Shown one piece after another: positions 322 to 1,898 of a stretch of 64,000 bases of DNA. The stretch is from Escherichia phage 55. The first letter of the stretch is position 1. Every line of letters starts with the position of its first letter. Position numbers and translations under genes: made by a program. The notes beneath the pieces are model-generated. The model was not told where the DNA came from. It searched no databases and saw nothing but the letters and a program-made list of their open reading frames with translations. The stretch is from the sequence record OQ599310; one strand, written 5' to 3'.

Positions 322-585
322 ATGAAATTTAAATTTTTCTACGCAAAACATAAAGTAACAGGCGAATTTGTTTCAATGTACAACACTGCAGATGACGAAG
401 GGATGATTTATACCCATTTGGGTCTATCTCATTGGGACTCAGACGTGCCTTATATGTCATCTGAAGCCGAAATAACTCGTTTAGTTAATGGACATATGAA
501 TGACCATTTTGGTGTTATTCTTTCTAAAGACCTTAAAGAGGTTATCAACAAAGGATATATGGAACTCGCGGAAGTTGAGATATGA
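322..585 (+). CDS. hypothetical early protein (87 aa)
   Basis: ORF track; SD aagagga upstream; stop overlaps next ATG (ATGA at 582-585). Confidence 0.5.
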   Translation: MKFKFFYAKHKVTGEFVSMYNTADDEGMIYTHLGLSHWDSDVPYMSSEAEITRLVNGHMNDHFGVILSKDLKEVINKGYMELAEVEI

Positions 586-668
586 GCTCTAAAATGTGGA
601 TAGGAATATGGTTGCTTAGTATCCCAATGATTTGTATAATATTTTCAATTGTGTTGAGGTACTTATGA
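582..668 (+). CDS. small hydrophobic peptide (28 aa, MSSKMWIGIWLLSIPMICIIFSIVLRYL)
   Basis: Not in ORF track (<60 aa); ATG overlaps upstream stop (ATGA); single predicted TM-like segment. Confidence 0.3.
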   Translation: MSSKMWIGIWLLSIPMICIIFSIVLRYL

Positions 669-775
669 AAAATGCACTTCTTATTGTACTAAGAACAATT
701 TGTGATACGGGTTTTTACATTGCATGTTCGTTCACTGGAACATGGTTGGCTTTAACATATTTTAATGTAATTTAA
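665..775 (+). CDS. small hydrophobic peptide (36 aa)
   Basis: Not in ORF track; ATG overlaps stop of preceding peptide ORF (ATGA at 665-668); hydrophobic. Confidence 0.3.
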   Translation: MKNALLIVLRTICDTGFYIACSFTGTWLALTYFNVI

Positions 776-777
776 TT

Positions 778-815
778 GTTTACAACAAGGTAGGATTATG
801 GTATAGTAGTCCTAC
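778..815 (+). promoter_or_regulatory. early-promoter cassette with palindrome (GTTTAC ... GTAGGA-ttatggtatagtag-TCCTAC)
   Basis: GTTTAC 778-783; inverted repeat 790-795/810-815; near-duplicate of cassette at 266-302; precedes ATG 836. Confidence 0.5.
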
Positions 816-835
816 TGAAACATGAGGAACACAAA

Positions 836-1036
836 ATGGCTAAGCTTTTTAAAGATGTTGAAATTGGTGAAAAATTTGTTCTGAATAATGGTCAGCAGCT
901 TATTCGTGTAGCTTCTATCACCGGACAAACTCATAACTGTATCGCCCCAACGTGTTGGACTCGATTCTTTATTGAGGATGACACTGAATGTTTAACTGTT
1001 GAAGAGCTTTTTGAACGTTCTGATATAACCGAATAA
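836..1036 (+). CDS. hypothetical early protein (66 aa)
   Basis: ORF track; SD gaggaa upstream. Confidence 0.45.
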   Translation: MAKLFKDVEIGEKFVLNNGQQLIRVASITGQTHNCIAPTCWTRFFIEDDTECLTVEELFERSDITE

Positions 1037-1038
1037 AA

Positions 1039-1074
1039 TTGTACAAACTCTTGAGAGCAGAGTATAATGCTCTC
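1039..1074 (+). promoter_or_regulatory. promoter cassette with palindrome (TTGTAC ... GAGAGC-agagTATAATgc-GCTCTC)
   Basis: TATAAT at 1063-1068 lies in the loop of inverted repeat 1053-1058/1069-1074; same architecture as 30645-30680. Confidence 0.5.
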
Positions 1075-1112
1075 ATGGATTACAAAAACATTAATCAATT
1101 GAGGAAATTAGC

Positions 1113-1559
1113 ATGTCCAAATATTTAACTCGTAAAGACCTTCTAGCAGTTGGCGGTGAAGTTGTTGCAGTAGTTCGTAATGGTGAATACGGTTCTGAAG
1201 TTTCTAAAGAGTTTCGTTCTCGTGAAGGTTTTTACTTCTTTGTTAAAGGTTCATCTGATTGGCGACAAGTAGCAGCACGATTCTTTGTAGGACGTCAACG
1301 TTCTAAACAAGGGTTGGATGCAATTCTTTCTCACATTCGTCAAGGCCGTTCGCAACTAGCCCGTACCATGGGCACTAACAATATTGAATATGATGTAATC
1401 TTTGTTGCAGCTAAGAACATGAAACCACTGACTACTGGTTATGGTAAAGGACAATTGGCTCTGGCATTCACTCGCAACCATACATCAGAATATCAAACAC
1501 TCACTGAAATGAACCGTCTTCTGGCTGATAATTTCAAATTCATTCTGCAGAGTTACTAA
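1113..1559 (+). CDS. ndd: Ndd-like protein (nucleoid disruption), 148 aa; assignment by size and position upstream of gene 52
   Basis: Synteny with the T4 ndd-stp-ac-52 arrangement (T4 Ndd about 151 aa); no motif verified. Confidence 0.45.
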
Positions 1560-1611
1560 TTTATACGGGCCTATTAAGTTGGGCCTTTAATTTATTTTTG
1601 AGGTAATTAAA

Positions 1612-1758
1612 ATGATAGCATGGATTATTGCATTGCTGTGTTGGTCGTTTTTATTCGTTAACACTTTAGTTACAGGCGAAACAACAGTATTTCAACAGGC
1701 TGTATCACAAGGCACCTTAGCGGTCTTAGCTCTTCTTAACGTGTTAAAAGGCGAGTAA
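1612..1758 (+). CDS. small membrane peptide (48 aa), ac/stp-position
   Basis: Not in ORF track; strong SD gaggtaattaaaATG; hydrophobic (MIAWIIALLCWSFLFV...). Confidence 0.35.
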   Translation: MIAWIIALLCWSFLFVNTLVTGETTVFQQAVSQGTLAVLALLNVLKGE

Positions 1759-1898
1759 TGATTAAGAAAATCTTAGCAGGAGCCTTAGGGCTCTTGTTGT
1801 TGCTTACGGTTCTGTACTATGGTGTGATGTTTGGACTAATCCAAGTAGTGCTTTTCATTTCAGATGTTATAATGGTTATTCGTTCATTAATATGGTGA
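1758..1898 (+). CDS. small membrane peptide (46 aa), ac/stp-position
   Basis: Not in ORF track; TAATG overlap with preceding ORF; strongly hydrophobic (LGLLLLLTVLYYGVMFGLIQVVLFI). Confidence 0.35.
   Translation: MIKKILAGALGLLLLLTVLYYGVMFGLIQVVLFISDVIMVIRSLIW

Follow-up and report, generated by a model that had tools for sequence, protein, structure and literature searches.

Conserved small-peptide genes in the denB-ndd-52-motA region of a Mosigvirus genome and a variable hydrophobic-peptide slot at the gene 52 stop codon

What do the tiny open reading frames (ORFs) packed around ndd and gene 52 of Escherichia phage 55 encode, and do they have counterparts elsewhere? The window analysed, a stretch of 64,000 nucleotides from record OQ599310, belongs to Mosigvirus (RB69-like T-even coliphages), is 97-98% identical to many GenBank genomes, and shares synteny and genome identity with T4 and RB69. 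All five ORFs that a preliminary description had pointed out are found at the coordinates claimed, encode 28, 36, 48, 46 and 26 aa, and sit in the denB-ndd-52-motA region, where T4 too packs tiny predicted membrane peptides (Table 1). The five are real, conserved early genes; four have T4 counterparts or belong to catalogued families, so that the set is mostly ordinary. The one fresh point is that, in most T-even lineages, the slot at the gene 52 stop codon is filled by a tiny hydrophobic peptide, drawn from at least six families with no detectable mutual similarity. An Rfam E-value scan of positions 1-4500 found nothing, and the idea that the region encodes a structured RNA rather than peptides was rejected on that result.

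Table 1. Features of the region, with names assigned from sequence, in window coordinates
Feature	Position	Strand	Remarks
Early sigma-70-type promoter, TTTACA-17-TATAGT, TG-extended	267..295	+	inside 54-nt repeat 249-302
ORF322, 87 aa, RB69ORF270c family (phrog_2390)	322..585	+	upstream partner of 582-668
ndd.6 homolog, 28 aa, single predicted transmembrane segment	582..668	+	phrog_8851; similarity to T4
Mosigvirus-specific peptide, 36 aa, moderately hydrophobic	665..775	+	phrog_18561; T4 ndd.5 slot
Early promoter, second copy	779..807	+	inside repeat 761-814; bounds cassette, placed to drive ndd.1
Terminator-like hairpin between ndd and ac	1567..1586	+	annotated terminator in WFbE185 and ATK48
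ac, putative Ac acridine-sensitivity membrane protein, 48 aa	1612..1758	+	phrog_2501; own SD GAGGT 1600-1604
52.1, predicted DUF7396 membrane protein, 46 aa	1758..1898	+	Pfam PF24129; similarity to T4 gp52.1
Gene 52, topoisomerase II medium subunit	1903..3228	+	flanked by coupled peptide genes
Candidate single-transmembrane peptide, 26 aa, TTG start	3225..3305	+	TTGA overlap; stop abuts terminator hairpin
G+C-rich terminator hairpin GGGAGC-CGAA-GCTCCC	3304..3321	.	annotated terminator in ATK48; ends ac-52.1-52-peptide unit

On sequence similarity, the four main ORFs can almost certainly be assigned as ndd.6 (582-668), a member of a Mosigvirus-specific family (665-775), ac (1612-1758) and 52.1 (1758-1898). 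The 582-668 product matches PHROG 8851 over positions 1-28 of 28 (hmmscan, E=3.7e-11), and its homologs, found at 25 loci across lineages, keep the motif W-x3-W-x3-IP-x2-C. As with ndd.6 in T4, the ORF lies downstream of denB and its start overlaps an upstream stop; here ATG 582 overlaps the TGA (583-585) of ORF322, which has a pN/pS of 0.05. Lacking a good SD, 582-668 would rely on coupling to ORF322. The ndd.6 homologs of several lineages begin with a TTG that overlaps the upstream stop.

The next ORF, 665-775, starts on an ATG overlapping the TGA at 666-668, with a GAGG SD at 656-659. It matches phrog_18561 with E=1.4e-29, and its tblastn matches, in 152 records, are confined to Mosigvirus; in some genomes it is shortened by an in-frame 3-nt deletion. 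The slot that it occupies is empty of ORFs in lineages other than Mosigvirus and T4. Homology to ndd.5 was rejected (permutation p=0.26; T4 Ndd.5 falls in phrog_5011), as was homology to T4 ndd.2, ndd.2a, ndd.3 and ndd.4 (permutation, all p at least 0.25).

The 1612-1758 product matches phrog_2501 with E=3.5e-22 and resembles T4 Ac in a permutation comparison (p=0.0002). Alignment of the QG motif places G34 of the window protein on G38 of T4 Ac, and annotations of RB69 and of many relatives give the gene the name ac. Downstream of it, ATG 1758 overlaps the ac stop TAA (1756-1758), and the 1758-1898 product scores 79.8 bits against PF24129, for which the cut-off is 27. A gap of 4 nt separates the 52.1 stop from the ATG of gene 52 (1903), a spacing common to most lineages, and 52.1 stands directly upstream of gene 52 in most lineages with gp52 identity of at least 68%. 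The last ORF begins, as had been proposed, at a TTG preceded by GGAGG (3216-3220), and this TTG overlaps the gene 52 stop TGA (3226-3228). That GGAGG is dictated by the C-terminal LEAL of gp52 and occurs also in lineages without a downstream ORF; its spacer to the TTG is short, 4 nt. Start codons lying on upstream stops, which the preliminary description ascribed to the four main ORFs, are thus present at 582, 665 and 1758, and at 3225 as well, but not at 1612, since ndd stops at 1559 and leaves a 52-nt spacer before ac.

The ORFs had also been described as unannotated, which does not hold. T4 ndd.6, ac, 52.1 and motA.1 are long-named genes; AlbertHofmann, a BASEL phage, annotates the ORFs at 582, 665, 1612 and 1758; ac and 52.1 are named in RB69; and four of the ORFs belong to existing PHROG or Pfam families. 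The companion suggestion that gene callers miss them is often true of two ORFs, 582-668 and 3225-3305. Specifically, 582-668 is left without annotation in 18 of the 19 inspected Mosigvirus records covering the site, and its protein is listed in three genomes only, while 3225-3305 is not annotated in any of 20 inspected records covering it and has a single annotation, YP_010247053.1, in RefSeq HX01. The 'hypothetical protein' calls that lie under 3225-3305 in some records denote another ORF, which crosses the terminator and the promoter and whose start is placed at 3275 in some of them and at 3298 in others; the call in p000y is gp52 itself.

Hydrophobicity was assessed by the Kyte-Doolittle maximum over 19 residues, which is 2.62 (582), 1.56 (665), 2.21 (1612), 2.52 (1758) and 2.26 (3225). 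Judged by a small-membrane-protein criterion of about 19 or more residues at a Kyte-Doolittle value of at least 1.6, four products (582, 1612, 1758 and 3225) would be membrane proteins, and 665-775, which had been described along with the other three main ORFs as single-transmembrane-like, is marginal. Among 693 random ORFs of 20-60 aa, 2.2% are as hydrophobic as 3225-3305. Furthermore, of the window's 67 long ORFs, gene 52 alone is followed at its stop by a coupled ORF with a hydrophobic product.

We then considered variation among relatives. The reading frames are conserved in Mosigvirus. Disruptions occur in phage F2, where an extra A (+1) lengthens the A-run directly after the ATG of 665-775, and in JQD51, in 3225-3305. 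Distinct variants were counted as synonymous or nonsynonymous per frame in 19-22 Mosigvirus sequences, and synonymous enrichment appears only in the claimed frames, shifted frames being not significant. The synonymous/nonsynonymous counts are 7/4 for 582 (p=0.001), 11/10 for 665 (p=0.003), 13/11 for 1612 (p=0.0014) and 10/4 for 3225 (p=0.0002). For 52.1 the count within Mosigvirus, 8/12, falls short of significance (p=0.08); constraint on it is weak there, and its support is cross-lineage conservation. In the other four ORFs, the variation fits selection acting on the peptides encoded in the claimed frames. Values of pN/pS for the five ORFs, in order, are 0.11, 0.16, 0.21, 0.39 and 0.28-0.44. 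Pairwise pN/pS alone failed to distinguish the 3225 frame (0.44) from its shifted counterparts (0.47 and 0.68), whereas counting of distinct variant sites succeeded. A scan of metagenomes for Mosigvirus relatives of greater divergence yielded three only (L055-L057), and L057 was left out as a chimeric contig joining bacterial Lon and EngB genes to 52.1'-52.

We favour the reading that 3225-3305 is a functional gene, with fair rather than high confidence. The competing reading, which we hold to be appreciably less probable, is that the ORF is nonfunctional, either a decaying motA.1-type remnant whose ATG has become TTG or an open 3' untranslated spacer before the terminator. Decay would fit the TTG, which stands where the lineage with 81% gp52 identity has an ATG at the identical position (CTTTGA versus CTATGA), and would fit JQD51, in which a 5-nt duplication truncates the peptide after 5 codons. 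It would also fit the pairwise pN/pS over all sequences, which is close to that of shifted frames, the annotation in a single record, an SD imposed by the gp52 coding sequence, and the lack of a PHROG or Pfam match or of a homolog detectable outside Mosigvirus by tblastn, profiles and permutation. Against decay, the site test favours this frame only (the other frames give p=0.11 and 0.85), and the nonsynonymous variants are all conservative (L4I, G10S, A14V) or fall in the polar tail. On distinct sequences pN/pS is 0.28, inside the within-lineage range of 0.12-0.35 of other post-52 peptides. In addition, all 149 Mosigvirus records with a tblastn match align over 96% or more of the peptide, and among 21 translated Mosigvirus sequences (20 loci and the window) 19 are intact, one lacks the region and JQD51 is frameshifted. 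A hydrophobic coupled ORF being found at this gene end alone likewise speaks against an open spacer, and the TTG start is shared with conserved ndd.6 homologs.

Comparison of T-even lineages places the 26-mer in a wider pattern. Of about 8 lineages with gp52 identity of at least 66%, 7 have a hydrophobic ORF of 23-77 aa that starts at or next to the stop codon of gene 52, and the slot holds, across most T-even lineages, at least six peptide families without detectable mutual similarity: MotA.1, the 26-mer and at least four other unrelated families (34, 45-46, 23 and 74-77 aa). Homology of the 26-mer to motA.1 or to other post-52 peptides was rejected by BLOSUM62 local-alignment permutation (p=0.07-0.44; 0.25 against T4 MotA.1, 0.07-0.17 against the peptide of the 78% lineage). 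A functional link to the topoisomerase, in which the peptides tether or organise gp52 at the membrane or tie it to Ac-conferred acridine sensitivity, strikes us as very improbable. If true, it would mean that selection on the post-52 slot is for whichever small transmembrane helix is produced along with gp52, and that the peptides are not independent accessory factors.

The layout of predicted signals suggests early transcription. By sequence match, the promoter at 267..295 is placed to drive ORF322, 582-668 and 665-775. No promoter-like site lies directly upstream of ac, so the unit comprising ac, 52.1, gene 52 and the 26-mer probably needs read-through from the ndd promoter at 1040. The loop of the hairpin at 3304..3321 is polymorphic (CGAA/TTCG). 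Reported T4 data class motA.1, 52.1, ac and ndd.2-ndd.6 all as early transcripts, and an LC-MS time course gives all the T4 counterparts the proteome class 'none' (PMC9697503, supplement file 4).

Taken together, the locus is probably explained as a set of small T-even genes downstream of early-type promoters, whose products would be host-membrane peptides acting on envelope complexes. Membrane activity of the peptides, which had been proposed before, is plausible, and their most likely function is that of immediate-early small membrane peptides on host envelope complexes. Our model of how they would act is more tentative, and we give it somewhat less than even odds. The stop/start overlaps (ATGA, ATGA, TAATG and TTGA) may couple translation by termination-reinitiation, so that each peptide would be made together with its upstream neighbour. 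Within minutes of infection the products would insert in the inner membrane of the host, with topologies predicted from hydropathy to be single-pass for ndd.6 and the 26-mer and helical-hairpin for Ac and 52.1, and would bind host envelope complexes rather than act as enzymes. The T4 deletion sa-delta-9, running from 52.1 through denB, abolishes phage-induced stimulation of phosphatidylglycerol synthesis and leaves the phage viable (PMC6071114); the peptide set is therefore accessory and conditionally useful.

Ac is the sole member of the set with experiments behind its function. Its presence makes infection acridine-sensitive (10.1101/2025.06.30.662393, PMC13250531); in T4, the G38R substitution in Ac confers acridine resistance, and Ac alone, expressed from a plasmid, sensitises E. 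coli (10.1101/2025.06.30.662393). The same preprint puts forward the hypothesis that Ac blocks AcrAB-TolC efflux. These experiments bear on a cis-acting explanation, in which the small ORFs would serve as translational couplers or leaders for neighbours such as gene 52 and the peptides themselves would be irrelevant. Tight stop/start overlaps and the 4-nt distance from 52.1 to gene 52 in most lineages would suit such a role, and dissimilar sequences per lineage in the post-52 and post-ndd.6 slots are what would be expected if the act of translation alone mattered. We nevertheless regard it as highly unlikely: Ac acts by itself, and a single substitution in it confers resistance; peptide conservation exceeds the needs of coupling, as seen in the identity of 52.1 to its T4 counterpart, its invariant C-terminal motif and the ndd.6 motif; an ORF downstream of gene 52 cannot control gene 52 translation by coupling; and the occupants of the post-52 slot are all strongly hydrophobic, which coupling does not need.

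Defence offers another explanation for the peptides, as Stp-like modulators or triggers of restriction and anticodon nuclease, or as depolarising, superinfection-exclusion or lysis-timing factors. The preliminary description had invoked T4 Stp, encoded in the same neighbourhood, and this link finds no support here: stp is absent between ndd and ac, tblastn with T4 Stp (26 aa) has no match in Mosigvirus loci or within the window's first 6 kb, the matches being confined to T4-type lineages and those with 81% gp52 identity, and none of the five peptides resembles Stp, which is hydrophilic and basic. More in keeping with a defence role, the genes are early, accessory, fast in turnover and lineage-variable, in cassette-like modules flanked by repeated promoters, and such cassettes are typical of host-interaction or counter-defence loci. 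The T4 membrane proteins Imm, Sp and RI, which act in exclusion and lysis inhibition, offer precedents. Nothing specific on the function of ndd.x, 52.1 or motA.1 was found in the literature searched, nor an experimental link to defence, and the known phenotypes of the region are acridine sensitivity and phospholipid synthesis. A defence role thus appears unlikely, if less so than a purely cis-acting one, and action on host envelope complexes is the reading that we retain.

That tiny predicted membrane peptides crowd the interval from denB to motA is textbook knowledge for T4, homologs of these ORFs are already public, and finding the cluster here has little discovery value. What it offers is annotation hygiene, for the ndd.6 homolog and the 26-mer after gene 52 are missing from most Mosigvirus records, and some records annotate spurious ORFs spanning promoters and terminators instead, together with a recurrent start for conserved T-even micro-peptides, the TTG within a TTGA overlap. 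The gene 52 stop slot is a clean natural system for probing the roles of phage micro-membrane-proteins.

Set beside T4, the window shows the same plan with local changes. T4 Ndd.6 (NP_049886, 28 aa, PHROG 8851) has the same length, 54% identity (tblastn, E about 1e-7) and the common tryptophan-containing motif. Both overlap an upstream ORF downstream of denB by ATGA and are followed by a further ATGA-coupled small ORF; the upstream partner differs, being here the 87-aa protein of RB69ORF270c type. In T4 the label 'outer membrane protein' is a prediction only, and the sequence, without a lipobox, resembles a single inner-membrane helix. T4 Ndd.5 (NP_049885, 32 aa) shares its slot with 665-775, and each of the two overlaps the ndd.6 stop by ATGA and begins with MK, but they have no sequence similarity and belong to different PHROGs (5011 and 18561).

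T4 Ac (NP_049877, 51 aa, PHROG 2501) occupies the same place upstream of 52.1 and 52 and has the same two-helix hydrophobic architecture and conserved VF-x-QA-x2-QG core, including the glycine G38, although identity is about 34% and the window protein is 48 aa long. In T4 ac comes after stp; the window has no stp, and its ac lies downstream of a terminator hairpin and has an SD of its own. T4 gp52.1 (NP_049876, 46 aa, DUF7396, PHROG 3595) is equal in length, 74% identical and equally spaced from gene 52, and has the same invariant C-terminus, YYG...FGL...VLFISDVI...W; the ac/52.1 overlap is 1 nt here and 8 nt in T4. T4 MotA.1 (NP_049874, 49 aa, PHROG 3487) sits in the slot of the 26-mer, with the same coupling through a start overlapping the gene 52 TGA, and is likewise a hydrophobic peptide ahead of a terminator and a promoter before motA; it differs in its length, in its ATG in place of TTG, and in having no detectable similarity.

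Beyond phages, E. coli AcrZ is a small membrane-protein regulator that binds AcrB. Regulators of this type have fewer than 50 aa and one or two transmembrane helices, and are thought to bind a large membrane complex. The analogy is functional only and no homology is claimed; the phage peptides differ in being encoded by the infecting genome, and the effect proposed for Ac is inhibitory.

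All five small ORFs listed in the preliminary description are present in the window (see the table), within a 4.5-kb opening segment that is 97–98% identical to many genomes of Mosigvirus, the RB69-like T-even coliphages. We conclude that they are real genes, ordinary and already known, with some reserve as to 3225–3305. The proposed overlap of each start codon with an upstream stop is found for 582 (ATGA), 665 (ATGA), 1758 (TAATG) and 3225 (TTGA), but not for 1612, which follows a 52-nt spacer with a terminator-like hairpin (1567–1586) and has its own Shine-Dalgarno-type site, GAGGT. 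The products starting at 582, 1612, 1758 and 3225 clearly have the hydrophobicity of a transmembrane helix, with Kyte–Doolittle maxima over 19 residues of 2.2–2.6; that of 665–775 reaches only 1.56.

Features of the first 4.5 kb of the window, with counts of distinct synonymous and nonsynonymous variants in the proposed reading frame
Feature	Coordinates	Strand	Product or remark	Syn/nonsyn	p
denB, 3′ end	up to 253	+			
ORF322	322–585	+	87 aa		
ORF 582–668	582–668	+	28 aa	7/4	0.001
ORF 665–775	665–775	+	36 aa	11/10	0.003
ndd.1	836–1036	+			
ndd	1113–1559	+			
ORF 1612–1758	1612–1758	+	48 aa	13/11	0.0014
ORF 1758–1898	1758–1898	+	46 aa	8/12	0.08
gene 52	1903–3228	+			
ORF 3225–3305	3225–3305	+	26 aa; terminator hairpin directly after	10/4	0.0002
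71-aa gene	3415–3630	+	phrog_6200		
motA	3734–4366	+			
Early σ70-type promoter matches	267, 779, 1040, 3348, 3669				
Terminator-like hairpins	1567, 3304				
Upstream direct repeats	249–302, 761–814		54 nt, 81% identical		
Downstream direct repeats	3338–3392, 3659–3713		55 nt, 89% identical		

We counted each distinct variant among 19–22 Mosigvirus sequences once, as synonymous or nonsynonymous in each reading frame. Synonymous changes are enriched in four of the five proposed frames, 1758–1898 falling short, and the two shifted frames of each ORF never reach significance in the same test. Pairwise pN/pS is 0.11 for 582–668, 0.16 for 665–775, 0.21 for 1612–1758, 0.39 for 1758–1898 and 0.28–0.44 for 3225–3305, compared with 0.04–0.07 for gene 52, ndd and ndd.1. 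Two disruptions occur among the relatives: phage F2 has an additional A in the A-run after the 665–775 ATG, and in phage JQD51 a 5-nt CCTAG duplication truncates 3225–3305, changes that may be sequencing errors or genuine losses. In 665–775, 3 nt are deleted in some genomes, with the frame kept.

The T4 syntenic region is annotated as ndd.6, ndd.5, ndd.4, ndd.3, ndd.2a, ndd.2, ndd.1, ndd, stp, ac, 52.1, 52 and motA.1, with predicted membrane or periplasmic protein as the label of the majority of its small genes. By sequence, 582–668 is the ndd.6 homolog: it matches phrog_8851 (E = 3.7e-11), equals T4 Ndd.6 in length (28 aa) at 54% identity, and shares the motif W-x3-W-x3-IP-x2-C with its homologs in 25 loci. 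In one surveyed locus (L008), a frameshift joins ndd.6 to downstream sequence in an 83-aa ORF. We identify 1612–1758 as ac from its match to phrog_2501 (E = 3.5e-22), its similarity to T4 Ac (permutation p = 0.0002), its retention of the QG motif containing T4 G38, and the annotation of its counterpart as ac in RB69 and many relatives. Among Mosigviruses the ac allele varies in length; some alleles have 49 aa because the stop at the ac/52.1 overlap is lost (TAA to CAA), and in F2 one codon close to the N-terminus is deleted without loss of frame (alleles at 1380–1529 in JQD51 and 3754–3897 in F2). ORF 1758–1898 is assigned to 52.1, with 79.8 bits to Pfam DUF7396 (cut-off 27) and 74% identity to T4 gp52.1; 52.1 lies directly 5′ of gene 52 in most lineages with at least 68% gp52 identity. 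ORF 665–775 belongs to phrog_18561, with tblastn matches in 152 records, all Mosigvirus. It resembles T4 ndd.5 (phrog_5011) in occupying an ATGA-coupled slot after ndd.6, but shows no sequence similarity to it (p = 0.26).

The description of these ORFs as unannotated is incorrect, as most relatives carry annotations for 665–775, ac and 52.1, and AlbertHofmann (Bas47) for all four main ORFs. The exact 582–668 protein is listed for phages Bas46 and 55, with a cluster-mate under Bas47, and by exact-sequence look-up 'Escherichia phage 55' has all three of the window's versions of 582–668, ac and 52.1. YP_010247053.1 (RefSeq HX01) is the commonest variant of the 3225–3305 product. Gene callers did miss two ORFs, 582–668 being absent from 18 of 19 and 3225–3305 from all 20 inspected records covering the site. 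Other small-ORF calls, at window positions 1039–1128 and 3298/3323–3427 (a 29-aa TTG ORF annotated in LH01 and NHEP11; PHANOTATE or pharokka calls in ESh15, FL31, EP32a and NHEP11), are probably spurious; they span the ndd early promoter, or the terminator and promoter after gene 52.

ORF 3225–3305 is present in 149 records, all Mosigvirus (tblastn), and has no family match in PHROG or Pfam profile searches. Its TTG start is credible because in several T-even lineages conserved ndd.6 homologs can start only at TTG, in an overlap with the preceding stop (TTGA, or 8 nt upstream; near 1050–1300 in loci L011, L013, L038 and L044, and at 1320 in L014). As a caveat, besides the truncated JQD51 frame, the upstream GGAGG is also imposed by the gp52 C-terminal LEAL and is likewise found in lineages lacking a downstream ORF. 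Only 2.2% of 693 random ORFs of 20–60 aa are as hydrophobic as 3225–3305, and among the window's 67 long ORFs only gene 52 ends in a stop to which a hydrophobic ORF is coupled.

We surveyed this position in 38 IMG/VR loci, 24 metagenome loci, T4 and Mosigviruses. In seven of about eight lineages with at least 66% gp52 identity, the gene 52 stop overlaps or adjoins the start of a strongly hydrophobic ORF: motA.1 (49 aa, phrog_3487) in T4-type phages and the 78% lineage, a 34-aa peptide (phrog_16377) in the 81% lineage, 45–46 aa (phrog_13762) at 69%, 23 aa at 68%, 74–77 aa in two loci at ~66%, and the 26-mer in Mosigvirus. The ATG of the 81% lineage lies exactly at the position of TTG 3225 (CTATGA versus CTTTGA). 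Permutation tests and PHROG revealed no relation among these families beyond composition; within lineages, their pN/pS is 0.12–0.35. We regard 3225–3305 as probably, though not certainly, a functional gene. The residual interest lies in this under-annotated TTG 26-mer and in the slot at the end of gene 52, which has repeatedly been refilled with peptides. One metagenome contig (L057, OQVL01000516.1, 1–2450), in which a 5′-truncated 52.1 and a gene 52 with 99% identity to that of the window adjoin bacterial genes for Lon protease and for an EngB-like GTPase, is most likely chimeric through misassembly.

The stop/start overlaps would couple translation, and the products may be small inner-membrane peptides acting on host envelope complexes. 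In T4, the counterparts are all transcribed early, and no protein was detected for them in an LC-MS time course (PMC9697503). Within the set, functional data exist for Ac alone: deletion or mutation of T4 ac confers acriflavine resistance, and Ac expressed from a plasmid makes E. coli more sensitive to acriflavine and ampicillin, for which the authors propose interference with AcrAB-TolC (10.1101/2025.06.30.662393, PMC13250531). With the T4 deletion sa-delta-9 (52.1 through denB), the phage no longer stimulates phosphatidylglycerol synthesis, yet phage yield is still 50% of wild-type (PMC6071114), and the genes of the region are therefore accessory. A link to Stp and restriction finds no support, as stp is absent and no ORF here resembles Stp: tblastn with T4 Stp finds none in the Mosigvirus loci, and the ndd–ac gap (1560–1611) is only 52 nt and holds a terminator-like hairpin. 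Stp is nearly invariant in T4-type phages and the 81% lineage.

Both pairs of direct repeats carry early promoters. The upstream pair brackets a cassette of ORF322, 582–668 and 665–775, while the downstream pair, with a hairpin before each copy, flanks the 71-aa gene. The hairpin at 3304–3321 shows a loop-inversion polymorphism with an unchanged stem: the window shares the tetraloop CGAA with WFbE185 and RB69, and most other Mosigviruses have its exact reverse complement, TTCG. The 71-aa gene is absent from p000y, O157 typing phage 3, JQD51, PNJ-9, mobillu, JK36 and F2, which looks like gain or loss of a promoter/stem-loop (PeSL) cassette. Shuffling of such cassettes has been described in T4-type phages (PMC2839356, PMC4122927); the window's promoter-carrying repeats and the variable presence of this gene match it, and shuffling of this type may be the reason that unrelated peptides occupy these slots across lineages.
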